The notes below the pieces were generated by a model. It saw only the letters and a list, made by a program, of their open reading frames with translations. It did no database searches and was not told the DNA's origin. Made by a program: the position numbers and the translations under genes. Below are positions 7,171 through 61,600 of a DNA stretch of 64,000 nucleotides, piece by piece (position 1 is the first letter of the stretch; every line of letters begins with the position of its first letter). Origin of the DNA: Mobula hypostoma (taxonomy: Eukaryota); assembly GCF_963921235.1 (NCBI RefSeq), contig NC_086097.1:22694001-22758000 (forward strand), written 5' to 3'.

Positions 7171-8080
7171 AAATATAATAGAAACAAACAAATATCTAAA
7201 AATAGACAATCAATAGATAGATGAATGAATAAGCTTGAAGAGCCACTCAATGTTTTAGGAACAGCTTCTTCCTCTCCGGCATCAGATTTCTGAACGATCC
7301 ATGAGCTCTACCTTGGTATTCCTTTCTTTGCACTATTTATATATTTTTGTAATTTATAAAAATGTGTATGTCCTAGTGCTATACTGCTGCTACAAAACAA
7401 CAAATTTCACTTCAGATAAGCCAAGTTCTGATTCTGAAATGAGTGTCAGACACACTGATTACATCTTTGTGTGAATAAATGAGTCATGCATAGAATTGCA
7501 TAGTCCACTTTGTGGAGGGCAGGACTTTAATCAGGAACAGTTGGAATTTTTGTTGAAACGCAGCTCTTTTTTGAGTCAATAGCTATTTTTACAGAATTAA
7601 ATCTCATCGCCGCTTGCAAAAATTCATCTGTCGTTAGCTTGATGTTGCCACCTCAGTTAATCCCGGGTCACTTCCTCCCGCTGTCTGTAAGGAATTTGTA
7701 CGTTCTGCCTGTGAAGGTGTGGCTTTCCTCCAGGCGCTGCAGTTTCCTCCCACATTCCAAAGACGTAGCTGCTGGTTGGTATGTTAATTGATCATTGTGA
7801 ATTGTCCCTTGATTAGGTTCAGATTGAATTGGGGATTGCTGGGCGGTGTGAGTTGAAGGGCAGAAGGGCCTGTTCTGTACTATACCTCAAGAAACAAACA
7901 AACAAATAATAAATAGTAGAGTGAGAGTATTGCCTGTGAGTGAAAGACTGTATTGCCTTTCAAAGCCAATGCCTCAATCCCTCATAATTAATATCTATTA
8001 ATTTTTACCCGTTCAATGTTTTTTACAGTCACAACACACTGGAGGAACTCAGCAGGTTGGGCAGCGTCCATGGAAACGAT

Positions 8081-8118
8081 CAGTCAACGTTTCGGGCCGG
8101 AACCCTTCGTCAGGACTG
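8081..8118 (-). ncRNA. Minimal type-I hammerhead ribozyme motif
   Basis: Minus strand CAGUC-CUGACGA-A-GGGUUCCGGCCC-GAAA-CG-UU-GACUG: stem I CAGUC/GACUG, intact core, palindromic ACGU in place of helix III. Confidence 0.8.
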
Positions 8119-8130
8119 AAGAGGGAAGGG

Positions 8131-8168
8131 CAGTCCTGACGAAGGGTTCCGGCTCGAAACGTTGACTG
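8131..8168 (+). ncRNA. Minimal type-I hammerhead ribozyme motif
   Basis: CAGUC-CUGACGA-A-GGGUUCCGGCUC-GAAA-CG-UU-GACUG; intact core and stem I. Confidence 0.8.
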
Positions 8169-8316
8169 ATCGTTTCCACGGATACTGCCCGACCTGCTGA
8201 GTTCCTCCAGCGTGTTGTGAGTGTTGCTTTGACCCCAGCATCTGCAGAGTATTTTGTGTTTACAATATTTTTACAGCACTCATCTTGGCTGTATCAGGTA
8301 ATGCAAACACAAAGTA

Positions 8317-9123
8317 ACACACACAAAATTCTAGAAAAACCCAGCAGGTCAGGCAAGATCTATAGAGAGGAATTATGAGTTGATGTTCTGGGCTGACACC
8401 CTTCATCAGGATTGGGAAAGAAGTGGGGGGGGGCAGTGGAAGAAGCAAGAATAAGAAGGTGGGGGAAGGGAGAAGCAGTACAAGCTGGCAGGTGATTGGT
8501 GAAAACAGGTGGGGGGATGGTAGGTGGGTGGGGGAGGGAGGATGAAGTGCAAAACAGAGGTGATAGGTGGAAGTCGTAAGGGCTGAGGAAGAAGGAATCT
8601 GAGAGGAGAAAAGAGTGGATGAAGGGAGAAAGGGAAGAAGGAGGGCACTAGAGGGATGTGATAGGCAGGCGAAGAGAGCAGAAGGGGAGGGATGGCAGAG
8701 TGGGGAATAGAAAAGGAGGAGTGGGGAGAAGTTACTAGAAATTGGGTGGAATGGTAGCATATCCATACAGTGGCAACAATCTGGGTACAATTCCCACCAT
8801 TGTCTGTGAAGAGTTTGTGTGTTCTTCCCCTGACTATGTGGGTTTCCTCCAGGTGCTCCAATTTCCTCCTATATTCTAAAAATGTGTGGGTTAGTAGATT
8901 AATTAGTCTCACGGGTGTAATCCGGTGGCATGGGCTCATTGGACCATGAGGGCCTTGTCATTGTGCTGTATCTCTAAATAAAAAGGAAAGGAATAAATCC
9001 ACTACCTGGACTGAATATGAGATGTTGATCTTCAAACGTGAGGACTCACCATGGCAGTGGAGGAGGCTATGAGCCAAGATGTCATAATGGGAATGGGGAG
9101 CAGAATTAAAATAGTTGGCCACC
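8317..9123 (-). mobile_element. Penelope-like element 3' fragment (Neptune-like), interrupted by a V-SINE
   Basis: 9000-9123(-) encodes VANYFNSAPHSH...LLHCH (PLE endonuclease C-terminus remnant); pyrimidine-rich 3' region; decayed hammerhead near 8378-8413. Confidence 0.7.
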
Positions 9124-9914: not shown

Positions 9915-10648
9915 TTGGTAGCTCAGTCTGAAGCGTTTGATGTTGTGGTATTCACTGAGCTTGGCAATTAGCTTGCAGACGTTTCATCACCCATCGAGGT
10001 GACATCCTCAGTGCACAGTTGTTGGTGTTTCTCTCTGGGAGTGTTCACATTTACATAGGCCTCTGTTTGCATGCCTCGCCTCTGACTGGCCACCCCTTCA
10101 GTTGACCTTTGAATTCTACTGGCTTGTGTTTCTTTGGCACTTGGGGGTTCATAGGTGACAACTATTTTGATATATTTGCTTACGGAGTTATCAAAAGAGA
10201 ACCACACTTCTAGAAGTTCTGGTGCCTGCTTCATGTTTACCTGTGCCAGACCCTCCGTGGTGCCTCAGTTAAAGTGGTGTCCTTTTCGGTCTTCATGTAC
10301 GGAGCTCAGCGACAGTAGATCATGTCTCCGTACCGACAGTTTGTGTTTCTGTAAACAAGTTGAGAGTTTACGGCCTGTCTGGCCAGTGCAGTTCTTGTTG
10401 CAGTCTCCATAGCTGAACCTGTACACCACATTGATCTTGTCGGTTGTGTTTACTGGACAGCCGACAAAAAGGAGAGAAAGTTGTGCAGAGCTTACTCGGT
10501 GTGCATTGAAACGCATGTCCTTCATCAAGGATATCTCAGGAATGGCAGCTTGGCTGTTCAAATCTCACCATATCGCAATCGCTCACAAGCCAACCGCAAC
10601 AGTAGGAAGCTTGAACAAGAACCATGGTACCAGCAAAGACAAAATTAC
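9915..10648 (-). mobile_element. Penelope/Poseidon-like element 3' fragment with GIY-YIG endonuclease remnant and inverted 5' segment
   Basis: ORF 10265-10561(-) reads NVVYRFSYGDCNKNCTGQTGRKLSTCLQKHK (GIY-YIG). Plus-strand 10460-10648 encodes the upstream linker FIKDISGMAAWLFKSHHIAIAHKPTAT...KDKI. Confidence 0.85.
9974..10015 (-). ncRNA. Minimal type-I hammerhead ribozyme motif in the PLE terminal repeat
   Basis: Minus strand UGCA-CUGAGGA-U-GUCACC-UCGAUG-GGUGAU-GAAA-CG-UC-UGCA; 6-bp stem II and GUC cleavage triplet. Confidence 0.82.
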
Positions 10649-10650
10649 TA

Positions 10651-10713
10651 CAGTACTGTGCAAAAGTCTTAGGCACATATAACTTGGGTGCCTAAGACTT
10701 TTGCACAGTTCTG
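10651..10713. mobile_element. Tc1/mariner-type MITE (63 bp)
   Basis: 26-bp TIR CAGTACTGTGCAAAAGTCTTAGGCAC (1 mismatch) with TA on both flanks; degraded relative near 11093-11175. Confidence 0.85.
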
Positions 10714-11937
10714 TAGTAATTTTATGTATTGGGCTGTATTGCTGCTGCAAAGAAAACAAATTTCATGATGATAAACCTGATAAACCTGATTTTGGTATGT
10801 GTCTCTGTTATGGACTGAGAGTAGGAAGGGGGCAAGGAGAAGGGAATTATGGTTGGGATAAAAGGAAGGGAGAGGGGAGGGAGTATGAAGACATTATGTG
10901 GAATTTAGTGACCTTGCCTGGTGTCTCAGGGCTGGGTGTGTCTGTACCTACACCACCCCCTTCCCCCGCCCCTGGCATTCCTTCTCTGCCGTCTGTCCCA
11001 TACCCTTCCCGCAGCGCGCCATCCTCGCCTTCTCAATGTCCTTTGGTCCTGCCAGATTTACAGACTCACTCTGTGCTCCACGTTGACAAATACAATACTG
11101 TGAGAAATTCTTAAGCACCCTAGCTATATACAGTATATATATATATACACACCTAAAACAATTGCATGGAGCTGCACACGCAGTATGTGTGTGTGTGCGT
11201 GTGTTTTAGTACAAACGTATGCATCAATTAACTGAGCAGTCAAACTAGGCAAATGCTGAAGCAGTTGTTTGTTTTAGAGCTTCTGAATCGAACTGTCAAT
11301 CAAGTTGAGCTTCAGATATTACTTCCTAGTCCGATTCAACTATTTTCATCGCTTCCAGACAACAAGGAGGAAAAGTACTGCTGTTATAGCTGAGAGACAA
11401 GCTAGCAGGACCCCAGTGGGAACAGGCATTACTGTTAACAGCACTAACTCTTAGTCAATAGTGGTAAACCAGCCTTTATCGCCTGGGGACACAGTGAAAT
11501 AGTTTTGTCCTGATGGGTTTGTCTCAGAGCAATCTAGTTAACTCTTTTTTGATGTGGGCACCTATACTGCAGGTAGAGTTTTGTGCTGATTTCCAATTAA
11601 ACCTCAGAGAAATGGTGTTCAGGCTGTGTAATCCCCACAGGACTTCCAGTGGGATTTAGCACTGGTTTTGCATTGCTGACACATATCAAGTAAATACACA
11701 CATACCTCCCAACATGGGGAAATCTTCTAAGTTACAAGCAAAATAATGTGAGACTGAACTTGGATAAAAGTATTGGTATATATTTTCAACAAGAAGAAAG
11801 AGATTGTTTCACCTAGGTGTTTCAAGTCTTCTGAAAAATAGAAGTGGAAGCATTCTGATCCAGCAACTAATTTGTAAATGGCAGCCTCCCACATGAACGT
11901 GTTGATCCAGATAGCTACGTCAGTGATACTAATTGAA

Positions 11938-12335
11938 GAGACAAAGCAACACACACAAAATGCTGGAGGAACTCAGTAGGTCGGGCAGCGTCTGGGGAAA
12001 TAAATAAAGTCGACTTTTGGGGCCGAAACCCTTCACCGGGACTGGAAAGGAGGGTGGAAGAAGAAGGTGGGAGGTGAGGAAAGAGTACAGGCCTAGCAGG
12101 TGGTAGATGAGAGCAGGCGGGTGTGGGGAGTACATGAAGTAAGAATGGAAGTGGAAGGAGGAAAAGGCTGAAGAAGAAGAAATCAGACAGGAGAGGAGAG
12201 TGACCATGGGGGAAAGACACCAGCGGGAGGTATTGGACAGGTGAGGTAAGAGGGGCGCCAGAATGGGAAATGGGAAAAGAAAGAAAGGGGAAGAGGAAGG
12301 AATTAATAGAATTCGGAGAAGTTGATATTCATGCA
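11938..12335 (-). mobile_element. Neptune-like PLE 3' fragment
   Basis: Same terminal motif CACACAAAATGCTGGAGGAACTCAG; decayed hammerhead near 12008-12045; purine-rich tract on the plus strand. Confidence 0.75.
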
Positions 12336-12565
12336 GTCTTCTTTATTCTGCTAGCATACTGCAAGCCTTTCTGACCCCCCTATCTCCTTATGTTGCCACT
12401 TTTAGGGATCTTTAGATTTGTACTTCAAGGTCTCCCTATTCCTAAATACTGTTAGGGCCCTTCGTTCAATGTGTATATCCTCTGTTGTGTCATTCAAATG
12501 GCAACTACTGTTTGTGTGGCCGCAAGAAACTGCAGAGAGATTTGGACACAGTGCAGTACATCATA

Positions 12566-13920
12566 TTGGTGTTAAGGATACTATCAGAATGAGCTATTCA
12601 AGTGCAAAAAGATGTGTTTGTTTGTTTTATCGACTACACAAAAGCATTTGATAAAGTTGAAGCACAATAAGTTGTTTGAAATATGACAGAAGACTCTAGA
12701 TCTAGATTCGAAAGACCTCCGCCTAATCAGAAATCTGTACTGGGAACAAACTGCTGCTGTAAGAATAGATGGAGAAATGATTCTGTTTACGAAAATCAAG
12801 AGAGGCATTAGACAAGAGTGTGTTTTGTCCCCTGATTTATTTAACGTGTACAGTGAAATAATATTACAAAAAATAAGAGACATCTTGGGAATCAAAGTTG
12901 GCGGTGAAAACATCACTAATTTCAGATATGCAGATAACACTGTGTTAATTGCAAGTACGGAGGAAGAACTACAAAACTTAATTGATATAGTTGCTGAAGA
13001 AAGTGCAAAAATGGGTCTATCAGTTGCAAAAAGACAATGTATGGTGATGTCCAAAAAGAAGGAGAATCCTATCTGCAGGTGAGAATAAACGGGGAAGACA
13101 TAAAACAAGAACAGAACTTTTGTTACTTAGGAAGCTGGGTGACATCAGATGGCAGGTGCAACTTGGACATCAAAAGAAGAAAAGGGATGGCAAAAGACAC
13201 CTTCATGAGAATGAAGAGTATACTGACCAATACTAAACTAGGCATGACAACCTGTCTCAGAGTACTGAAATGTTACGTTTATCCAGTTATGTTATATGGC
13301 TCAGAATATTGGACAATATCTTGTAACATGAGGAAACAAATTGAAGCAGCAGAGATGTGGTTTTTGAGGAGGATGCAAAGAATGAAATGAATACCTAACG
13401 AGGACGTCATGAACAGAGCAGACACAAAAAGAGAAATAATGTATGAGATCATGAAAAGGCAACGTAACTTCATTGGACATGTGATTAGGAAAGAGAAGTT
13501 AGAATGTACGGTAATTCATAGTTATAGTCATACCTTATTGATCCCGGGGGAAATTGGTTTTCGTTACAGTTGCACCATAAATAATTAAATAGTAATAAAA
13601 CCATAAATAGTTAAATAGTAATATGTAAATTACGCCAGGAAATAAGTCCAGGACCAGCCTATTGGCTCAGGGTGTCTGACCCTCCAAGGGAGTAGTTGTA
13701 AAGTTTGATGGCCACAGGCAGGAATGACCTGTGTTGCAATTATGGGAAAGGTTGAAGGGAAGAAAGCAAGAGGAAGTCAAAGACAAATGATGATGGAGAC
13801 AGCAGCCAGAGAACTGGAAATGAATACCAATGAACTAATCCACTTGACCTGAAACATTAGTGTGTGGGCCATGGCAGTCAAAGCTCAAACTGGGCACGGC
13901 ACCTGATGATGATGATGATG
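12566..13920 (+). mobile_element. 5'-truncated RTE-clade LINE, family 1
   Basis: ORFs 12777-13082 (GIRQECVLSPDLFN...RYADNTVL) and 13037-13390; (GAT)n tail; TSD CAGTACATCATA (12554-12565 and 13921-13932). Confidence 0.92.
13517..13737 (-). mobile_element. Rex1 3' tail inserted in the RTE
   Basis: Nearly identical to 15225-15460; AATT repeated on both flanks; the RTE sequence resumes after it. Confidence 0.88.
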
Positions 13921-15222: not shown

Positions 15223-16474
15223 ATAATCATAGTCATACTTTATTGATCCCGGGGGGAAATTGGTTTTTGTTACAGTTGCACCATAAATAATTAAATAGTA
15301 ATAAAACCATAAATAGTTAAATAGTAATATGTAAATTATGCCAGGAAATAAGTCCAGGACCAGCCTATTGGCTCAGGGTGTCTGACCCTCCAAGGGAGGA
15401 GTTGTAAAGTTTGATGGCCACAGGCAGGAATGACTTCCTATGACGCTCTGTGTTGCATCTCGGTGGAATGAGTCTCTGGCTGAATGTACTCCTGTGCCCA
15501 ACCAGTACATTATGTAGTGGATGGGAGACATTGTCCAAGATGGCATGCAACTTGGACAGCATCCTCTTTTCATTCAGACACCACCGTCAGAGAGTCCAGT
15601 TCCATCCCCACAACATCACTGGCTTTACAAATGAGTTTGTTGATTTTGTTGGTGTCTGCTTCCCCAGCGCACAACACCAAACATGATTGCACTGGCCACC
15701 ACAGACTTGTAGAACATCCTCAGCATCGTCTGGCAGATGTTAAAGGACCTCAGTCTCCTCAGGAAATAGAGACGGCTCTGACCCTTCTTGTAGACAGCCT
15801 CAGTGTTCTTTGACCAGTCCAGTTTATTGTCAATTCGTATCCCCAGGTATTTGTAATCCTCCACCATGTCCACACTGACCCCCCGGATGGAAACAGGGGT
15901 CACCAGTACCTTAGCTCTCCTCAGGTCTACCACCAGCTTCTCAGTCTTTTTCACATTAAGTTGCAGGTAATTTTGCTCACACCATGTGACAAAGTTTCCT
16001 ACCGTAGCCCTGTACTCATCCTCATCTCCCTTGCTGATGCATCCAACTATGGCAGAGTCATCCAAAAACTTCTGAAGATGACAGGACTCTGTGCAGTAGT
16101 TGAAGTCCGAGGTGTAAATGGTGAAGAGAAAGAGAGACAAGACAGTCCCCTGTGGAGCCCCAGTGCTGCTGATCACTCTGTTGGACACACAGTGTCGCAA
16201 GTACACGTACTGTGGTCTGCCAGTCAGGTAATCAAGAATCCATGATATCAGGAAAGCATCCACCTGCATCGCTGTCAGCTTCTCCCCCAGCAGAGCAGGG
16301 TGGATGGTGTTGAACACACTGGAGAAGTCAAAAAACATGACCCTCACAGTGCTCGCTGGCTTGCCCAGGTGGGCGTAGACACGGTTCAGCAGGTAGATGA
16401 TGGCATCCTCAACTCCTAGTCGGGGCTGGTAGGCGAACTGGAGGGGGTCTAAGTGTGGCCTGACCATAGGCCGC
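15223..16474 (-). mobile_element. Young Rex1/Babar LINE, 5'-truncated, RT largely open
   Basis: ORF 15625-16506(-), 293 aa: LDPLQFAYQP...FFDFSSVFNTI...GAPQGTVLS...QKFLDDSAIVG; (GACTAT)n tail. Confidence 0.95.
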
Positions 16475-16517
16475 CATCTTCTCCTCTTAAATAGTTTGTA
16501 CGACAATATAACATAGA

Positions 16518-16640
16518 AGTACGGTGACCCTGACAGGGATTAAGCACCAGATGGCTAAGCTCCAAGCAGCATCACTCTCGAGGTCTCAGGAACTCACCAG
16601 CCTCTCCACCACAACAGGGTGATGATCCTCGTAGAAGGGT
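16518..16640 (-). mobile_element. RTE 5'-UTR-like fragment
   Basis: Minus strand CACCCTGTTGTGGTGGAGAGGCT...CTCGAGAGTGATGC...CAGGGTCACC parallels the head of the 14-400 element. Confidence 0.45.
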
Positions 16641-18674
16641 ACTTCTGAGTATACCAGGTGAAGTTTCATGATTGAGAATCAAATCTCTTTGAAAGCCAAA
16701 TTGTGCCATGGAAGTGTATTACAGTTCAAGGAGTAGAGTTTGGAATTCAATTCCGGTGCCACCTGTAAGGAGTTTGTATGTGCTCCCTGTCACTGCGTGG
16801 GTTTCCTCTGGTGTTCTGGTTTGTTTTTACAGACCAAAGTCTTACCGGTTAGAAGGATAATTGGTCATTTGTAAGTTATCCTGTAATTAGGTCACCATTA
16901 AATAGGTGGGTTACTGGGTTACTGGGTGACATGGCTCATTGGGCTGGAAGAGTCTGTTCTATGCTCTATCTCTAAATTTAAAAAAAGCTTCATGGTGCAG
17001 TAATGTAATTCTCAGCAGACACCGTAGTACATTTGGCTTTCATTTTAATTATTTCAATACTTGTATTGAGCTTAAATTCATTAAATTATACAAATTCAAA
17101 AAAAAATTACATTGGTACCTTTCACAAACAATATGTATCAAAACATAGGGTGTGATGAACCAGCACTGATGTGCGTGTGCAGTTGTTTCCCAAGTGAAGA
17201 CACTTCTAATATATTTGACTTGAAAAGGGAAAAATTGTGCAACTAACATTCATATACTGCCTTTAAAATGGTAATGCATCCAAAATACTTCCCAGCAGTG
17301 TTGTCAGACAAAATAAACAGTAAAAGAATGGAGAGTTTTGGATAGAAGAGATAAAAAGCTGGTCAAAGAGAACTTGTAGTTGTTCCATCACAGTTTAGTC
17401 ATATCCTTGAGAATGTGTCAACAAATTACTTTGGTTCTCTGCATAACATCATAGAAAGTGACAAATTTTCATCTTGTGCAGATAATTGGTAGTCTTTTGC
17501 ACTCTTTAGAAGTAGATTTTGCTTTGTGGTGCCTTAGTAATGCTGCCAAAGTAATCACAATGGGAAAAAGCTCCAGTTATAGTTTCTGCTCTGTCAGAAC
17601 ATCATACACTGTTCGCCAGGATTGCTGAGAAATGCCACCAGAGAATGGCGGACATTTTTGAATTATGAGAATACTTTGACCTCTCTGTCTTTGGCCTCTT
17701 ACGCTCTTCCATCAAAGCCCAGTGTATGATGAAGGATCAGGATCCCGTCTATACCTAGGCAAGTTACAGCTTTTGGGACAAAATATTGAATAACATTGTC
17801 TTGTCTGATCAGTTATAATTTAGGGTCATCCAGGTCTGTTGGGTACTTCAAGCATTTTTTTTGTTTCCAGGAATGGCTGTGTTCCACATCGAACAAATTC
17901 CAGCATGGACTTTCACTGATATACTCTTACTAATGTTATTCATCAAGTAAATTACTGAAAATTCTTTGTGTCACCTCTCTGATCTTAGTCTCTACTCTGT
18001 CACAGACATTCTCTTGAATCTTTTCATCCTTCTCCCTCTCTGCAATTTGAAACACACTTTGTTGCCTCCTACTTTCCCAATATTAAACAGGCTGGCTTGT
18101 TAACATAGCTGTTAGTGCGACGCTTTACTGCGCTAATGATCACCGATCGGGATTTAATTCCTGCCGCGGTCCGTAAGGAGTTTGTACGTTCACCCTGTGA
18201 CCATGTGGATTTCCTCTCTGTGCCCTGGCTTCCACCCACGTTCCAAAATAACCCACACAAAATGCTGGAGGAGCTCAGCAGCGCAGCCAGCTTCTATGGG
18301 AACGAATAAACAGTCGACGTTTCAGACTGAGACCCTACCTTTCCAGTTCGGAAACCTTGGCTGTTCGTTCATTTCCACAGATGCTGCCATGTGTGTTTCT
18401 TTGGATTTCCAGCACATCGGGCCGGAGGTCGAAAGGCCATGGGTCGGCAGCTGAATGCTGCAGGTTGGCAGTTGCTCCTCACGGAAGGACTGTGTTCGAA
18501 ATGTCACTCTCCTTGATGCTGACAGAGAATGTTTTCAGAGTTCCGAGACGTATGTGATTAGTGGCGTGGACTGTAGTTTATGCTGGTCTCCTTCAGTTTT
18601 TCTGTGTTTTCGATTGGCAGGCGGGCGATAACAGTCCAAAGGCATATTTCAACAGCTGAGTTGATAGGTCGTGT

Positions 18675-19080: not shown

Positions 19081-20137
19081 CAGTCTTTGCTGTTTTATGT
19101 AGCAGTACACATGGCATTTTTGGGGAAAAGTTAGAATATGATGAATTTTTGTATAAATATTGATCACTTCATTTTAAAGCTAGGATCTTAAATTTAAGTT
19201 AAGCAAGCTACCGAGGCAAGAGGCATGAGTTGGCTACAGTATTTAGGAAATTACATGAAAGTTGGTCCGTATCTCAGCCCTCATATGTCCTCAGTGAGCA
19301 GAGGACAAAGTAATAAAATTGTCAATGACACAGTAATAGGTAGAAGATCATATGGTAAGGAGGATATTTGGACCCTGCACTTGAGGAAATCTGTATTCAG
19401 AGCATTGCCCTGTTTTTTTAAAGGAAGGTACTCTCAAAAAGAGAATTCATGGAAGTATACTGTATGTTAAGATACGGAATCAACATCAGATTTATTATCA
19501 CTGGTGTGTTGTGAAATTTATTGTTTTGCAGCAGCAGTACAACGTAGTACATATAATTTGTTATAAAATACAATTATATATAGTGCAAAAGGACAACAAA
19601 AATAGTGAGATAACATTCAGAAATGTAATGGTAGACGAGAAGCAGTCATTTCTAAAACATTGAGTGTGAGCCTTCAGGCTCCTGTACCTCCTCCTGATGG
19701 TAGTAGTGAGAAGAGGACATCCAGGGTGGTGCGGGTTCTTAATGATGAATGTTGTCTTCTTGAGACATCTCCTGTTGGAGTTGTTCTTGATGCTGGGTGG
19801 CGGAAGGGGTGGGTGAAGGGGGGATACTGCCCATGGTGGAGCTGGCTGAGCTTACAAACCTCTGCAACTTTTTCCAATTGTGCACATTGGCCCTGAGCCG
19901 TAGCTCTGTTACTGATTTGTAAAGTCTTACTTTTCCTACCAGTTACAAGTAGTGCAAGATTATTGGCTACTTGCCAAGATGTGAATTGGCTGCATTTGAA
20001 TTAAATTATATTTCTTAAGTGAATAGGGTGGAAAGTGTGTGAAATCATTTAAAAAATAATCTGCTTTAAAGCGGGGTATGAATTCCTTCAGATTCATTTA
20101 TTCATCACGTGTATCGAAACATACAATGAAATGTGTT

Positions 20138-20348
20138 GCAACGCACACAAAATGCAGGAGGAACTCAGCAGGCCAGGCAGCATCGATGGAAAAGAGCAGT
20201 GTCAACATTTCAGGCAGAGACCCTTCAGCTGGACTCAGCCTGAAACGTCGACTGTACTCTCTTCCATAGATGCTGCCTGGCCTGCTGAGTTCCTCCAGCA
20301 TTTTGTGTGCGTTGCTTAGATTTCCAGCATCGCAGATTTTCTCTTGTT
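20138..20348. mobile_element. Second palindromic PLE-derived insertion
   Basis: Inverted arms at about 20138-20220 and 20235-20315 plus tail; approximate 13-bp TSD AATGAAATGTGTT / AGTGAAATGCATT; the hammerhead is broken at the centre. Confidence 0.8.
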
Positions 20349-21879
20349 AGTGAAATGCATTGTTCGTATAACAATGAAAGCAATCCAAGGATATACTGGG
20401 GGCAGCCCACAAGTATTGCCTCACATTCTGGCACCAATATAGCACGCTCACAATGTTCAGCAGAATAACACAAGCAGCAGCAACAACGGCAATGATGGAC
20501 CATGTACGCAGAGTTTTTCTTCTTGAAACTCAAATAGTAGGGAGATCATAACATCATAAGACATAGGAGCAGAATTAGGGCATTCGACTCACGGACATTG
20601 GGCCTCCGACTTCCCCAGCGGACCCGCAGAGTCACAGACCCAGAGCTGTGGCCATCTGCGCTCCGATCTTTCTGATCTGCTCATCCTTCGGTGCTTGGAA
20701 CAAACGAAAAGCATCAAACATACATGCATATCTCCTGCTTGACTTGGGATATAGAATGACAGATCACAGAAGGTATCCATTAAGAGCATCGTGTCTGTGT
20801 TAATCCTTTGAAAGAGCAACCAATTGCTCTCACTCCGCTTCTCTTTTTCCGATTGCCCTGTCTGTTTTCACTTTTCAGTATTTATCTGATTCACTTGTTT
20901 GATGTTTGACCTATTCCCACTGCCAATTTTCTGCAGCACATATGACACAACATGAGAAAACAAATAAAATCCTTATCTCACCCCCTGGCTCATTGTCTGC
21001 TTTCTCTAGAAGGAATCACGTTTAATTGTTTGTGGGCAGTTTTAGTTTTCTTTATTTATTTAGAGATATAACTTGGTACAGGACCAATTACATCCACGTG
21101 ACCCATTAACCCGTATGTCTTTGGAATGTGGGAGGAAACTGAAGCACCCGGAGGAAATCTACATGGTAACGGGAGAATGTACAAACTCCTTACAGACACT
21201 GGCAGTATTGAACCCAGATCACTAGTGTGGAAATAGCATTACACAAAATACTGCACTACGATGCGGTTTCTAATGGTTTGAAATCTTCCTTTATTGTATC
21301 TAACAATTGGTGAGGTTGGTCTTTCCACAAGAAAGAATGCTTTATAAACAGAAGAGATTCTGCAGATGCTGAAAATCGAAAGCAACGCAGGCAGATTCCG
21401 GAAGAACTCAGCAGGTCAGGCAAAATCTACGCAGTCGACATTTTGGGCCGAGACCCTTTATCAGGATTGTCCCGATGAAGAGAAAGTATACTTTGTTATT
21501 CAAGCTTGAGGTGTGGGAGTTAAGAGATTGATGGCTAGTAGATTTTATTTTCTGTCTTCATATTAAAGCTATGAATGTTGAAAAAGTCCTTTTATTTTAG
21601 AATACCTTGAGCTCAATAATAAATCGCTGTTTCTTTCAGCAGATCCAATTTTTCTTAATGTGTGCAGTGAAGGGAGAATTCCTTTGCAGGTGCAATAATG
21701 CTTATAACTATACCCTTAACTACATTTTGTCACTTTGCAATAAGTTACTATTATACTACAGCATACAGCAATTTAGTGCCATGGTAAAAATTATTTTTTT
21801 CTGTGCTGTTATGCTTAGAATAGAACATAGGAACTTGCACAGGGCCTTCGGCCCACAATGTTAAGCCGACCATGTAACC

Positions 21880-27542: not shown

Positions 27543-28999
27543 TGTAACATTCTGCCCAGTGGGATGCTGTGGAGTATTCAAGAGAGCTGGGTGAGGTCAG
27601 GTTTTGGAGGGACCCTGATCTAGTTTTAGATCTTCTGGTTGGGAGGTGTCAGAAGAGAAGGAGGTGCAGAGAAGAGCACCAGGGAAGACCCTGTCACTAA
27701 AAGCGATTTGTGCAGATGAATAGTTCCAAGGAGGAAGTGCCAGAATTTCTGAGTTAGCCAGTTTGTTTGTGATGCTCTTTACAGGAAGTTCAACCTGGGC
27801 TGGTGATGTAGGGGCAGAAACGAGCTCCAATGTTCATGTGTACATTTAGACTGGTTTAACTGTGTGGGCCCTTTTTCTTTCTTTTCCCATTAACTGTTCG
27901 TTACAGTTGAAATATTGGTAAATATACTTCCACTATAATTTTATGCCAGTGTACTACTATTACGTCAACTCAGGCCTAGGGGGCCAGCGTCGGGCACAAT
28001 GACGGACTCTCCACTTCTCCCTCTCCCTCATCAGTGTGTTCAGTTCATCTACATTAGCCGCACCGCTGTCTTCTAGAAGCACGTTGACCATTGTCTTGGG
28101 AGGGTGCCCAAGGTTCATCCTCCCGTGCTTGGGCTCCCATATGATGACTACGCTGGCAGGTAGCTCGGGGTGGCGTAGACAGTGCCCCGCTAGTTGCAGT
28201 CTTCTCGCCTCGATTTTAGTGGTGGGCATCGGTAGGTTGTCGTAGAGCTCGATGTTCGTCATGTGCTGTTGCCAACTCACGTCAAGAGCCATCCGGAGCA
28301 TTTGTGTATAGCAACCATCCAGAGACTTTCGCATCGTCTTGGTGAGTGTCCACATCTCGCATCCGTACGTGAGAATGGACTCTATGACTGCTATGAAAAT
28401 CCTCTTTTTAAGCCCTTTGGTCAGGTTCGACTTCCAGATTTCCTTCATGTCATTCATAGCCCCCCACGCCAGCGCCTTCCGTATCTTTATGTCCTTCTCC
28501 GAACTCATCATTCTTGACCTGAGGTACTTGTAGTTAAAGACTTTCTTAATGGTATCATTCTTTACAGTCTTGAGAGTACCTTCGTCACAGTTAAACGCCA
28601 TGTGCTCTTCTTTTTAGTGTTTAGGTGAAGTCCAGTTTTATTGCACTCAATTTCCACTATTGTCAGTAGCTGCTGTGCTTCCTCCATCTGGTCAGAGAGC
28701 AGGACTATGTCATCTGCAAAATCGAGATCTGTGAGCGTAACTGGTCTGACCTTTTTGGCCAGTGTACGATCTATGATTTCCTGGCAAATGGTAACTTGGT
28801 ATGAATCAGCATTTCCATTCTGTCATCGAAACATTCCAATTTTCCTGTTTGCTTGCACCCGAATGATACCGACCCTAGACGTGTGTTCCTATGGAAGGTG
28901 ACCTTCTCACTGTCACCCATGCAATGTTGAGTCACGTGGCCATGAGCCAGAGTTAGCTAACGAGCCAAGTTTGCTTCGAGTCCAAGTGAGAGGGTTACA
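27543..28999. mobile_element. Solo LTR (about 640 bp net), family C, split by an RTE insertion
   Basis: TGTAAC...GTTACA termini with 5-bp TSD CATGT (27538-27542 and 29000-29004). Confidence 0.8.
27955..28757 (-). mobile_element. 5'-truncated RTE-clade LINE, family 2
   Basis: LTDLDFADDIVLLS, then ORF 27960-28601 (ESILTYGCEMWTL...RRLQLAGHCLRH); 10-bp TSD GCCAGTGTAC (27945-27954 and 28758-28767); (TAG)n tail. Confidence 0.92.
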
Positions 29000-40177: not shown

Positions 40178-42294
40178 AAGTTGACCAAGGTTTTTCATGA
40201 CATGCCAAACCTCAGCAGACTCCTGAGGAAGTAGTGGCACCACTGTGCTATCTTTGCAATAATATTTATATGATGGGTCCAGGACAGGTCCTCTGAGATA
40301 GGGACCCCCAGGAATTTAAAGATAGTTACTGGCTCATGGACCTCTGGTTTCTCTCTCCTGAAGTCTACAATCAGCTCCTTGATCTTATTCACACTGAGTG
40401 AGAGGCTGTTGTTATTGCACCACTCAACCGAGTTTTCAAACTCCCTCCTGTATGCTGATTCATCACCTCCTTTGATACAGGGCACAACAGTTTCATCAGC
40501 AACTCATATATGTTGTACTCAGCCACATAGTCATGGTTGAAAAGCGAGTAGAGCAGGGGACTGAGTACACATCCCTGTGGTGCTCCTGTGCTAATGGAGA
40601 TTGTGGAGATGTTTTTGCCATTCCAAACTGACTGGGGTCTACAAGTGAGGAAATCCAGGACCCAATTACACATGGAGTTATTGAGTCCCAGGTCTTGGAG
40701 TTTACTGATTAGTTTTGAGGGGATGATGGTATTAACTGCTGAGCTGTACTCGTTAAAGAGCATCCTGATGTATGCATCTTTGCTGTCCAGATGTTCCAGG
40801 GCTGTATGAAGAGCCACCAAGATGGCATCTGCTGTAGACCTGTTGCTTCAGTAGGTGAATTGGAGCGGATCCAAGCCACCATTCAGACAGAAGCTGATAT
40901 GCTTCAACACCAGCCTCTCAAAACACTTCATTACTGTGGATGTAAATGGCACTGGGTGACAGTCATTTAAACAGGTTACCACACTCTTCCAGTACGACTG
41001 AAACCTGCTTGAAGCAGGTGGGTCTCACACACTGCCGGAGCGAGAGGCTGAAGATGTCTGTGAATACACCAGCCAGTTCATTAGCATACGTCTTCAATAC
41101 TTGGCTAGGTACTCTGACCAGACTGGATGCTTTCCTTGGATTCATTCTCTTGAAGACAGCCCGCACATCATCTTCAGATATAGTAGGATCATCAGGAGAC
41201 ATTGGGTTTCGTGATGATTCTTTCCTGACTGGTGGTCAAAGTGAGCATGGAAGGCCTTGAGCGCATCCAAAAGCGAAGTTCTGCTGTTCCCTATATCACA
41301 AGCTTCAGCTTTGTAGGAGGTTATGGCATTCAAACCCTGCCACAGGCTGTCGAGCATCCCTCATTGATTCCAGTCCAGTCAGGAATCTCTGCTTTGCCCA
41401 AGCAATGGCTTTCCAGAGACCATACCTGCTCCTCTTGTAGCATTCTTGACTTGAATGCCTCCGAACTCGCTCTCAGCAAGTTCCAGGTTTCCTTGTTCCT
41501 CCAGGGCTTCTGATAGTGGTAAACCCTGAATGATTTTGTGGGGTCAGACTCATCCACAGCTGTTTGAATAAAGTCTGTAAACTCCCTGGTGTAGTCACTC
41601 AGGTCCTCAGATGAGTTCTTGAATATGTCCCAGTGCAGTGACTCAGGGCAATTCCTCAGCCTCATATGACCACTTCTCAGTTGTCTTGATCTCTGGAGCC
41701 TTGAACAAAACAAGAGCAGAACAAAAGAAGGCAACAACAATAAAAACAAGCCCCTTTCCCACCCACTCACACACACAGACAGGAGAGGCTGCCTCCGGGC
41801 CTCCAGTTCTAGGCCCAGACTCTCAGAGACTGGGCCTCCAACCTCCAGTCCCTGGCCTGGACTCACAGACTTGACCCTCAGGCCTCAGGCTGTTCCAGTA
41901 TAGATGAAAAATGTCATTTGTAGTTATTGTAAAAACTAGAAAGCAAGATACTGTGGTGGCTCAAAATGTAGGAGAAAACAGAAAAAGCAGGTGTGAATAA
42001 TTAAAGCATGAATAAAAGAGAAAAATTATTATTCCATATGAGATAAAACTAGCCAGAAATATAAAACTCAATGGTAAGAGTTTCTGTAGATATTGAAAAA
42101 TAAATAAATAATAATAAGTTATATATCTCAGGTCTCACACCACCATGTTCAGGAGCAGTTATCATCCTTCACCATCAGGCTCCTGAACCAACATGGATAA
42201 CTTCACTCACAACAACTCTGAATTGATTCCACTACCTCTTTCAGGGACACTACAACTCATCTTCTCAGTATTTTTTTATTTACTTAATTTTTTA

Positions 42295-42915
42295 AGACTA
42301 TAAGATCATAAAATATCAGAACGGCTTTAGGCCATTCTGCCGATTGAATATACTCTGCTAGTCCATCGCACTGATTCATTATCCATCTCCACCCATTCTC
42401 CTGCCTTCTTCCCATAAGCATTGACTTTCTTACTAATCAATAAACCACTTTAAATATACCCAATGACTTTACCTCCACAGCTGTCTGTGATAATAAATTC
42501 CCCATATTCTCCACTCTCTTGCTAAAGAAATTCCTCCTCATCTCTCTCCTAAAGGGACATCCTTCTATTCTGAGGATGTGCCCTCTAGTCCTAGTCTTCC
42601 CCAATGATGCTCTCCACAAACATGAGAAAATCTGCAGATGCTGGAAAGCCGTATCAACATGCACAGAAAATGCTGGTGGAACTCAGCAGGCCAGGCAGCA
42701 TCTATAGAAAAGAATAAACAGTCAGCGTTCCGGGATAAACCTTTCATCAGGATTTGATGAAGGGTCTCAGCTTGAAACGTCAACTTTTCCATAGATGCTG
42801 CCTGGCCTGTTAAGATCCTCTCTGCATCCTCTTCACCTGTGTCTTTCACTGTTTGATAGGTTTTAATGAGATTCCACCCCCCATTCTTCAAAACTCCGGC
42901 GAATTCAGGCCCAAA
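42295..42915 (-). mobile_element. CR1 3' fragment containing a third palindromic PLE insertion (about 42618-42810)
   Basis: KTRTRGHILRIEGCPFR remnant; the insert folds back at CATCAGGAT-TTGATGAAGGG. Confidence 0.8.
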
Positions 42916-45457: not shown

Positions 45458-45930
45458 GCATCTCATATTTCATTTGGGTAGTCCAAACCCAATGGCATGA
45501 AAATTGAATCCTCCAATTTCTGGTATTCTGCACCCCCTTTGTCCCGTTTCTCTTTCCTCTTGATTTACCTCTTCCCATTCTTTGACACTCATCCAAGCCC
45601 CTCCCCATCACCCTATTTCTTTCACCTCCTCCACCTACTCTGTCTGCCCATCCTTCCACTAATTCCCTTCCCCACACTGTTCCCAGCTGCCCTCCTCAAT
45701 CCTGACACTTGAAACCACGCTGTGCTCTCTCCCTGGCCTGGTCTTGCTCCATTCTTCCCTTCAGTTCTTTATACTCTTTATCGCCCTGCTACCATTCAGT
45801 CCAGCTGAAGGGTCTCGACCTGAAAAAGACTAGCGTCCATTTCTCTCCACAGATACTGCCTGACCCACGGAATTCCTCCAGCATCTTGCTTGTTCCTCAA
45901 GAATCCAACGTCTACAGTTTCCTATGTCTC
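45458..45930 (+). mobile_element. Neptune-like PLE 3' fragment
   Basis: HLIFHLGS..PNGMKIESSNF C-terminal remnant, pyrimidine-rich UTR, decayed hammerhead near 45797-45835. Confidence 0.72.
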
Positions 45931-55603: not shown

Positions 55604-55731
55604 CAACACACATCAAAGTTGCTGGTGAACGCAGCAGGCCAGGCAGCATCTGTAGGAAGAGGTGCAGTCGACGTTTCAGGCCGAGACCCTTCGTCAGGAC
55701 TAACTGAAGGAAGAGTGAGTAAGGGATTTGA
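55604..55731 (-). mobile_element. 128-bp PLE terminal-repeat insertion
   Basis: Perfect 13-bp TSD AAGTGTGAGGTGA (55591-55603 and 55732-55744). Confidence 0.9.
55666..55701 (-). ncRNA. Minimal type-I hammerhead ribozyme motif
   Basis: Minus strand AGUC-CUGACGA-AGGGUCUCGGCCU-GAAA-CG-UC-GACU; intact core and GUC site. Confidence 0.82.
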
Positions 55732-58627: not shown

Positions 58628-61600
58628 AAATTTACTGATGACACTAAACTGAGTGAAAAAGTAAATTGTACAGAGGATGTGGAGAGTCTGCAGAGGGATA
58701 TAGATAGGTTAAGTGAGTGGGCCAAGGTCTGGCAGATGGAATACGATGTTGGTAAATGCGAGATTATCCACTTTGGAAGGAATAATAGAAGAGCAGATTA
58801 TCATTTAAATGGTAAAAGATTGAAGCATGCTGTTGAGCAGAGGGACTTGGGAGTGCTTGTTCATGAATCGCGAAAAGTTGGCTTGCAGGTACAACAGGTT
58901 ATTAAGAAGGCAAACGGAATGTTGGCCTTCATTGCTAGAGGGATTGAATTCAAGAGCAGGGAGGTCATGCTGCAACTATACAGGGTACTGGTGAGGCCGC
59001 ACCTGGAGTACTGTGTGCAGTTCTGGTCTCCATACTTGAGGAAGGATATACTGGCTTTGGAGGCAGTGCAGAGGAGGTTCACCAGGTTGATTCCAGACAT
59101 GAAGGAGTTAACCTATGAGGAGAGATTGAGACGCCCGGGACTATACTGGCTTTGGGTATTGTGTAATGAATTGGAGGTGATTGGAGAGATTGAGGTGAAG
59201 GAACCCTTAGGAGACAGTGATCATAACATGATTGAGTTCACTGTGAAATTAGAAAAAGAGAGACCGAAATCCGATGTGTCGGTGTTTCAGTGGAGTAAAG
59301 AAAATTACAGTGGCATGAGAGAGGAACTGGCCAAAGTTGACTGGAAAGAGACACTGGCGGGAAAGACGGCAGAGCAGCAGTGGCTGGAGTTTATGCGAGA
59401 AATGAGGAATGTGCAAGACAGGTATATTCCAAAAAAGAGGAAATTTTCGAGTGGAAAAAGGATGCAACCGTGGTTGACAAGAGAAGTCAAAGCCAGGAGA
59501 GGGCATACAAGGAAGCAAAAATTAGTGGGAAGACAGAGGATTGGGAAGTTTTTAAAACCTTACAAAAGGAAACCAAGAAGGTCATTAAGAGAGAAAAGAT
59601 TAACTATGAAAGGAAACTAGCAAGTAATATCAAAGAGGATACTAAAAGCTTTTTCAAGTATCTAAAGAGTAAAAGACAGGTGAGAGTAGATATAGGACCG
59701 ATAGAAAATGATACTGGAGAAATTGTAATGGGAGATGAGGAGATGGCAGAGGAACTGAACAAGTATTTTGCATCAGTCTTCACTGAGGAAGACAGCAGGA
59801 TACCGGACACTCAAGGGTGGCAGGGAAGAGAAGTGTGCGCAGTCACAATTACGACAGAGAAAGTACTCAGGAAGCTGAATAGGCTAAAGGTTGATAAATC
59901 TCCTGGACCAGATGGAATGCACCCTCGTGTTTTGAAGGAAGTAGCTGTGGAGATTGCGGAGGCATTACCGATGATCTTTCAAAAGTCGATAGATTCTGGC
60001 ATGGTTCCGGAAGACTGGAAGATTGCAAATGTCATTCCGCTATTTAAGAAGGGGGCAAGGAAGCAAAAAGGAAATTATAGACCTGTTAGCTTAACATCGG
60101 TGGTTGGGAAGTTGTTGGAGTCGATTGTCAAGGATGAGGTTACAGAGTACCTGGAGGCATATGACAAGATAGGCAGAACTCAGCATGGATTCCTTAAAGA
60201 AAAATCCTGCCTGACAAACCTATTACAATTTTTTGAGGAAATTACCAGTAGGCTAGACAAGGGAGATGTAGTGGATGTTGTATATTTGGATTTTCAGAAG
60301 GCCTTTGACAAGGTGCCACACATGAGGCTACTTAACAAGATAAGAGCCCATGGAATTACAGGAAAGTTACATTCGTGGATAGAGCGTTGGCTGATTGGCA
60401 GGAAACAGAGAGTGGGAATAAAGGGATCCTATTCTGGTTGGCTGCCGGTTACCAGTGGTGTTCCACAGGGATCAGTGTTGGGGCTGCTTCTTTTTACATT
60501 GTACATCAACGATTTGGATTATGGAATAGATGGCTTTGTGGCTAAGTTTGCTGACGATACGAAGATAGGTGGAGGGGCCGGTAGTGCTGAGGAAACGGAG
60601 AGTCTGCAGAGAGACTTGGATAGATTGGAAGAATGGGCAGAAAAGTGGCAAATGAAGTACAATGTTGGAAAGCGTATGGTTATGCACTTTGGCAGAAAAA
60701 ATAAACGGGCAGACTATTATTTAAATAGGGAAAGAATTCAAAGTTCTGAGATGCAACGGGACTTGGGAGTCCTCGTACAGGATTCCCTTAAAGTTAACCT
60801 CCAGGTTGAGTCAGTAGTGAAGAAGGCGAATGCAATGTTGGCATTCATTTCTAGAGGAATAGAGTATAGGAGCAGGGATGTGATGTTGAGGCTCTATAAG
60901 GCGCTGGTGAGACCTCACTTGGAGTACTGTGGGCAGTTTTGGTCTCCTTATTTAAGAAAGGATATGCTGATGTTGGAGAGGGTACAGGGAAGATTCACTA
61001 GAATGATTCCGGGAATGAGATGGTTAACATATGAGGAACGTTTGTCTGCTCTTGGACTGTATTCCTTGGAGTTTAGAAGAATGAGGGGAGACCTCATAGA
61101 AACATTTCGAATGTTAAAAGGCATGGACAGAGTGGATGTGACAAAGTTGTTTCCCATGATGGGGGAGTCTAGTACGAGAGGGCATGACTTCAGGATTGAA
61201 GGGCACCCTTTCAGAACAGAAATGCGAAGAAATTTTTTAGTCAGAGGGTGGTGAATCTATGGAATTTGTTGCCACGGGCAGCAGTGGAGGCCAAGTCATT
61301 GGGTGTATTTAAGGCAGAGATTGATTGGTATCTGAGTAGCCAGGGCATCAAAGGTTATGGTGAGAAGGCGGGGCAGTGGGACTAAATAGGATAAAATGGA
61401 TCAGCTCATGATAAAATGGAGCAGACTCGATGGGCCGAATGGCCTACTTCTGCTCCTTTGTCTTATGGTCTTACGGTCTTATGGTCTATACTCTCAGGAA
61501 TTCAGAAGAATGAGAGGGGATCTTATAGAAACATACAAAATTTTGAAAGAGATAGATAAGATAGAAGTAGGAAAGTTGTTTGCATTGGTAGGTGAGACTA

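Follow-up and report, generated by a model that had tools for sequence, protein, structure and literature searches.

A hammerhead-bearing palindrome in Mobula hypostoma is in all probability a one-off insertion product of a Penelope-like retroelement

Introduction

The window analysed here (64,000 nt of a Mobula hypostoma contig, the whole stretch of DNA that was studied) contains a compact palindrome whose two arms each begin with a minimal hammerhead motif, and the question that it raises is whether such a palindrome is a small mobile unit in its own right or what a longer retroelement left behind on inserting. The first-pass annotation had proposed a non-autonomous unit, MITE-like or retrozyme-like, and had named a one-off truncated Penelope-like retroelement (PLE) as the fallback. 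We are highly confident that the unit at 8029-8262 is a one-off PLE insertion product without a switch between RNA folds.

Results

Structure of the palindromic unit

The unit is 234 bp long and non-coding, and the coordinates assigned to it at first pass are exact. It consists of two 5'-truncated copies of a repeat end, arranged head to head inside one target-site duplication (TSD), with the following features in and next to it.

8014..8028, plus strand: left TSD, 15 nt, AT-rich, which aligns with 8263-8276
8029..8130, minus strand: left copy of the repeat's terminal part, tail-less, 5'-truncated 12 nt upstream of hammerhead stem I
8081..8118, minus strand: minimal type-I hammerhead motif of the left copy, with a GUU triplet and a predicted cut between 8086 and 8085
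8119..8130, minus strand: 12-nt "spacer", the left copy's upstream element sequence and the loop of the predicted hairpin
8131..8133, no strand: junction with the 3-nt microhomology CAG, which either copy could supply (window sequence compared with the loose-end majority)
8131..8262, plus strand: right copy of the repeat's terminal part, tailed, 5'-truncated at the first base of stem I
8131..8168, plus strand: minimal type-I hammerhead motif of the right copy, with GUU and a predicted cut between 8163 and 8164; its stem II has one G-U wobble
8221..8262, plus strand: one-sided 42-nt tail, on the right copy only (two 3'-end classes among window copies)
8263..8276, plus strand: right TSD, 14 nt (alignment with the left TSD)
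8310..8746, minus strand: neighbour outside the unit, an older, decayed and longer family copy with a pyrimidine-rich body of about 300 nt and a broken motif

The inverted arms (8025-8118 and 8131-8224, 94 nt each, 93% complementary) are separated by a gap of 12 nt, and their parts within the TSD (8029-8118 and 8131-8220) differ at 6 of 90 nt, in agreement with the 234-bp insertion with 90-bp inverted arms described at first pass. The hairpin predicted for 8020-8270 has an energy of -187.8 kcal/mol (z = -23), and none of 200 shuffled sequences folds as stably. The unit is nevertheless asymmetric, as the right copy extends 42 nt past its arm and the left copy has nothing corresponding; family sequence matching this tail was found in contig loose ends behind 8228 and 8231. 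The flanking TSD, put at about 15 bp in the first-pass annotation, is 14-15 bp long, aligns with one mismatch and one indel, and abuts both ends of the unit exactly; among random 20-mer pairs 18 of up to 20,000 scored as high, as did 77 of 20,000 AT-rich pairs (pairs less than 50 nt apart were skipped in the random-pair control).

All six arm differences are transitions and five of them lie at CpG, leaving a divergence of 1 in 90 outside CpG sites. This pattern is as expected of neutral decay and suggests that the arms diverged mostly through CpG decay since insertion. Both arms also share departures from the family majority.

These differences bear on whether the palindrome could be an assembly artefact made from fold-back reads. 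Complex PLE insertions do trouble short-read assembly (PMC8557442; this paper, like PMC3846280, PMC4209133, PMC7229834, PMC11167929 and the bioRxiv preprint cited below, was accessible as excerpts, to which our statements about it are limited), and no contig bridging the junction was present among the 32 contig pieces listed, beyond which there are 122,546 more. We give an artefact practically no credence all the same, given the six transitions with their CpG bias, the TSD at both ends, and the right boundary, which recurs letter for letter in sequencing run X1 (one record is identical over 8242-8467).

Two minimal hammerhead motifs

Each arm begins with a 5-bp stem I, followed by CUGACGA, one extra A, a 4-bp stem II, GAAA and the palindrome ACGU, and the C3-A9 core is intact in both motifs. 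Our own structure descriptor recovered four motifs in the 64-kb window (the two arm motifs, one at 55.7 kb and one at 10.0 kb) and none in 200 dinucleotide shuffles, which bears out the claim that a minimal type-I hammerhead stands at the end of each arm; their activity is a prediction. GUU cleaves more slowly than GUC; both arm motifs have GUU as the cleavage triplet, and the copy at 55.7 kb has GUC. The motifs thus combine the conserved core, helices I and II, the extra base before position 10.1, a palindromic remnant of helix III and an NUH triplet, as minimal hammerheads do, and GUU is listed as a cleavable NUH site (PMC3138052).

The Rfam check proposed at first pass gave no hammerhead: the models do not score these motifs, and there were 0 matches in the window at the gathering score. 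A search at E<=10 over 7900-8800 gave 11 matches, none of them a hammerhead and all below the gathering score; nine are microRNA-hairpin models, and we rejected the matches as generic hairpin scores. Covariation, computed from the 10 window copies only, had 89% of cells paired, a value as high in 31 of 500 shuffles, and a score that was reached by 40 of 500. Changed CpG arm-sites numbered 0 of 8 in the hammerhead part and 4 of 10 elsewhere (Fisher p = 0.09; p = 0.39 for all arm differences, hammerhead part against the rest), a difference that is not significant and at most faintly suggests that this part is young, converted or constrained.

The only other window copy of the family that passes the descriptor, at 55662-55702 (minus strand, GUC triplet), has no inverted partner. 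Two further copies, 20197-20236 (minus strand) and 45796-45836 (plus strand), share an altered core with CCAGCUGA replacing CCUGAUGA, which suggests a subfamily that may have spread with a broken hammerhead. Compared with the window arm, nine contigs of run X5 have 4 nt inserted directly behind the hammerhead, at window position 8167; this insertion is not listed for the other three runs and possibly marks a lineage-specific subfamily.

We also note a second minimal hammerhead, unrelated to the first, at 9973-10016 (minus strand), with a GUC triplet and a longer stem II. It lies downstream of a decayed frame (10268-10564, minus strand) which we take to resemble the end of a GIY-YIG endonuclease; Pfam, homologue and PDB searches with this frame gave no confirming match. 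Together the two likely represent a second PLE family.

The repeat family and its parent element

The arm represents the terminal part of a repeat that is present in very many copies. BLAST found 12 family loci in the window, and contigs placed on 7750-8750 at 85% likeness numbered 45,898, 43,543 and 27,312 in the DNA runs of three organism labels. Contig depth is concentrated on the arms, falls to about 7-15 on the unique flank 7988-8021, and is zero over 7886-7987 in every run (summed contig depths are not copy numbers). The 3,482 contigs placed from run X17, possibly an RNA run, match the family as a whole and give no measure of expression. Scans for the junction and arm patterns returned 0 matches in metagenome contigs, viral contigs and prokaryote genome contigs, which is uninformative, as expected of an animal repeat. 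No title describing this family in cartilaginous fishes was among those listed in the literature search; the supplements of PMC4209133 and PMC8557442 may list it.

Aligned window copies fall into two 3'-end classes, short and long, about 36-42 nt apart. The longer copies at 8310-8746 and 11940-12337 (both minus strand) measure about 400-440 nt, share a nearly common 5' start in the manner of solo pseudo-LTRs, and have in common the pyrimidine-rich body of about 300 nt; the former is 65% identical to the copy at 12057-12316, and the palindrome lies within about 50 bp of its 3' end.

The parent repeat is likely a PLE. The link drawn at first pass to PLE terminal repeats with minimal hammerheads was right, and the structure of the unit matches published PLE insertions. 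A Pfam scan of 295 stop-free frames of at least 62 aa in the 64-kb window gave RVT_1 in five frames, one ALKBH8_N match and one sub-cutoff hAT match; the ALKBH8_N match sits in one of the RT frames, and no other host-gene family was seen among the 295. GIY-YIG was found in 0 of the 295 frames, protein homologue searches from the family frames gave no match, and by these two routes no RT or GIY-YIG frame could be tied to the repeat family. About 10 codons and a stop at 12306-12335, at the start of the 12k copy, bear a resemblance to the end of a PLE ORF.

The remainder of the window consists of decayed retroelements. The five RVT_1 relics are of non-LTR type (59341-61254, plus; 15628-16539, minus; 12687-13079, plus; 28565-28822, minus; 40392-40847, minus), and a 637-aa frame among them is the longest in the window. 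An unrelated 83-nt palindrome at 10641-10723 has a single window copy, and we take its ends to resemble those of a Tc1/mariner-type miniature element.

The junction and other head-to-head loci

Records that match the window up to 8130 and then enter a purine-rich element body numbered 145 in run X1, 218 in X5 and 66 in X9. These records show that the 12 nt at 8119-8130 are upstream sequence of the left copy itself, which places the true junction at 8130/8131. The first-pass annotation was right that the two motifs are 12 nt apart; the spacer between them is element sequence of the left copy and not foreign. Beyond 8130 the majority sequence of the family has a G run followed by CAG, and the right copy opens with CAG; the resulting microhomology is 3 nt only and requires one G fewer in the G run than the family majority has.

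Five of the 12 family loci in the window are head to head (the 30k locus, which gave no alignment above the script cut-off, is included in the 12 as not head-to-head). Their junctions, counted with stem I as +1, are as follows.

8k locus (8029-8262): -12/+1
20k locus (20139-20348): +2/+18, with a 2-nt overlap
42k locus (42618-42812): about +2/+7, decayed
21k locus (21345-21480): +1/+3, decayed; only 12 nt of the second arm are left, as judged by eye
18k locus (18244-18400): about +13, other side unclear, decayed

Relative to stem I, all five lie between about -12 and +20, on the upstream side of the predicted cut site, and the junction of the 8k unit is shared with 0 of the 4 others. Five loci with five different junctions mean that no fixed unit is being copied in the window. 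This result, together with the copies that continue past 8130, makes the one-off truncated PLE named as a fallback the best fit, and leaves a MITE-like or retrozyme-like unit with fixed boundaries unsupported. According to self-BLAST (E<=1e-5), only the 8k and 20k loci are recovered as near-arm inversions of the family. The 20k unit has a TSD-like pair (20125-20138 and 20349-20362, identical at 11 of 14 letters) and, on one arm only, a tail of about 36 nt; in a TSD search at 6 other loci it alone gave a recognisable pair (score 8), the remaining five scoring 4-6.

How the palindrome may have formed

The unit is likely the dead-end product of one insertion event. For the route we lean, by a modest degree, towards priming from both target nicks. 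The element protein would nick the two target strands 14-15 nt apart, and the 3' end at each nick would serve as primer for reverse transcription from one of the element's two internal start sites, giving a tailed cDNA in one case and a tail-less cDNA in the other. Both cDNAs would halt close to the hammerhead's 5' edge, and their 3' ends would anneal at CAG/CTG, so that fill-in leaves a palindrome with its TSD. The TSD, the tail on one arm only, the microhomology, the departures from the family majority that both arms have in common and the variable junctions would all follow from such a route. Sequence lying 5' of the predicted cut is present in both arms, which makes uncut RNA the likely template.

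An alternative that leaves the identity of the PLE stump unchanged is fold-back self-priming, in which the nascent strand loops back at CAG/CTG around the 12-nt loop. The junction does form a small stem closing that loop, junction palindromes of rotifer Penelope elements are read as self-priming on an antisense template in PMC3846280, and the tail-bearing arm extends further 5' at the 42k and 21k loci, as simple fold-back would have it. At the 8k and 20k loci, however, the loop lies on the tail-less arm, so that a fold-back copy of the first cDNA would have offered no template for the 36-42 nt of the second arm; in addition, the PLE protein of the anole extends both target strands in vitro (PMC11167929). 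We regard fold-back as unlikely, though worth keeping in view.

The palindrome could also be what remains of a longer head-to-head insertion whose middle was later lost by microhomology-mediated deletion between two CAG triplets. The 3-nt microhomology at the junction would suit this history, deletions of this kind are known in Penelope copies (PMC3846280), and internal deletions are present in the window copies at 18k, 21k and 42k. Random later deletions would not favour five junctions so close to stem I, however, and the low divergence of the arms outside CpG leaves less time for a second event; we consider this history decidedly improbable.

RNA folding

A read-through transcript of either strand carries one motif and its own antisense, exactly as the first-pass annotation had it. 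The switch between a self-cleaving fold and a 90-bp hairpin that was built on this arrangement finds no support at any transcript length tested. Imposing the hammerhead fold on the full transcript is predicted to raise the ensemble energy by 63.0 kcal/mol on the plus strand and by 59.7 kcal/mol on the minus strand. At the moment when the motif is complete the penalty already stands at 53.0 kcal/mol (plus) and 41.9 kcal/mol (minus), as compared to only 2.6-3.4 kcal/mol for an isolated arm. The fold is costly even at the earlier point because the antisense arm is transcribed first on either strand, and a cost of about 60 kcal/mol relative to the hairpin speaks against a switch. The RNA of the palindrome is thus predicted to be a hairpin lock, with both hammerheads off.

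Because each strand carries just one of the motifs, they cannot pair up as the cis dimer that has been proposed for minimal hammerheads. Cleavage was not seen for a single minimal motif in PMC4209133 and was low for dimers, and the hammerhead of the anole PLE cut only in the presence of the protein and was dispensable for insertion (PMC11167929).

These results weigh most on the reading of the palindrome as a self-propagating non-autonomous unit, MITE-like or retrozyme-like, with RNA that alternates between cleavage and hairpin. The unit is compact and TSD-flanked, the catalytic cores of both arms are intact on paper while those of most other window copies are mutated, and the tail lies outside the predicted hairpin, where an RT start site could stay accessible. 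Against it stand a junction peculiar to this one of the five head-to-head loci, a hammerhead fold disfavoured by 42-63 kcal/mol, the want of a cis dimer where a single motif does not cleave (PMC4209133), the failure to find a head-to-tail tandem array at 8029-8262, and a one-sided tail, which means that the ends are not terminal inverted repeats. We think it very improbable that the unit propagates itself.

Comparison with known systems

PLE insertions frequently carry a 5'-truncated copy in inverted orientation at their 5' end, and a tail of 30-40 bp at one of their ends (PMC8557442), rotifer PLEs have inverted pLTRs, 8-10-bp TSDs and junction palindromes (PMC3846280), and in the anole the PLE protein cuts both target strands and extends them, its two internal RT start sites defining the tail (PMC11167929). 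The unit shares several features with EN+ PLE insertions: a minimal hammerhead in the terminal repeat, a truncated copy inverted head to head, a tail on one arm, an AT-rich TSD and microhomology at the junction. It differs from the EN+ insertions described in these excerpts in that both arms are trimmed to the edge of the hammerhead, leaving no coding body, and from published PLE values in its tail (42 nt as compared to 30-40) and its TSD (14-15 bp as compared to 8-10 in rotifers). Cervera and De la Pena (2014, PMC4209133) report pairs of motifs in Schistosoma mansoni, one on each strand, at distances of about 100-700 bp; in the palindrome the motifs are 12 nt apart, helix II has 4 bp as compared to 7-8, and the triplet is GUU.

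The animal non-LTR retrozymes (PMC7229834; bioRxiv 10.64898/2026.07.22.740005) are likewise short, non-coding and PLE-related, with a type-I hammerhead and a TSD of more than 4 bp. Those described in the accessible text are same-strand head-to-tail tandem repeats that release a monomer or circle, whereas the opposite-strand motifs of the unit cannot flank a monomer, and same-strand tandem units are lacking at 8029-8262.

With MITEs the unit shares its small size, lack of coding sequence, palindromic form and flanking TSD; unlike in MITEs, its arms come from a retroelement end and the junctions differ between loci. A MITE by definition has terminal inverted repeats, and the right 42 nt of the unit have no left partner. 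The TSDs of DNA transposons are typically far shorter than that of the unit. No title describing a palindromic hammerhead MITE was among those listed in the literature search.

Discussion

We consider the palindrome one more PLE insertion stump in a stump-rich genome, of an architecture that is already in print. Counting against this reading are the failure to tie a PLE protein frame to the family, the want of a junction-bridging contig among the pieces listed and of an empty-site joint among the 15 joints listed (580 more lie beyond these), a tail slightly above the published length, and a microhomology of 3 nt that needs an indel. A re-mobilised palindrome, giving rise to a sub-lineage of fixed-junction mini-elements whose hairpin RNA, with its hammerheads off, offers a single-stranded tail to the PLE protein in trans, strikes us as a long shot; if true, such a sub-lineage would add a new type to the non-autonomous derivatives of PLEs, MITE-shaped and distinct from tandem retrozymes.

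As an insertion stump, the unit is a clean mechanistic specimen, in which TSD, one-sided tail, loop and microhomology can be read within 234 bp. No paper applying twin priming to PLEs was among those listed in the literature search. Counts of such minimal palindromes could settle whether it is priming from both nicks or fold-back that generates the inverted arms of PLEs, and the same counts could show whether RT stops at the hammerhead fold rather than at the cut.
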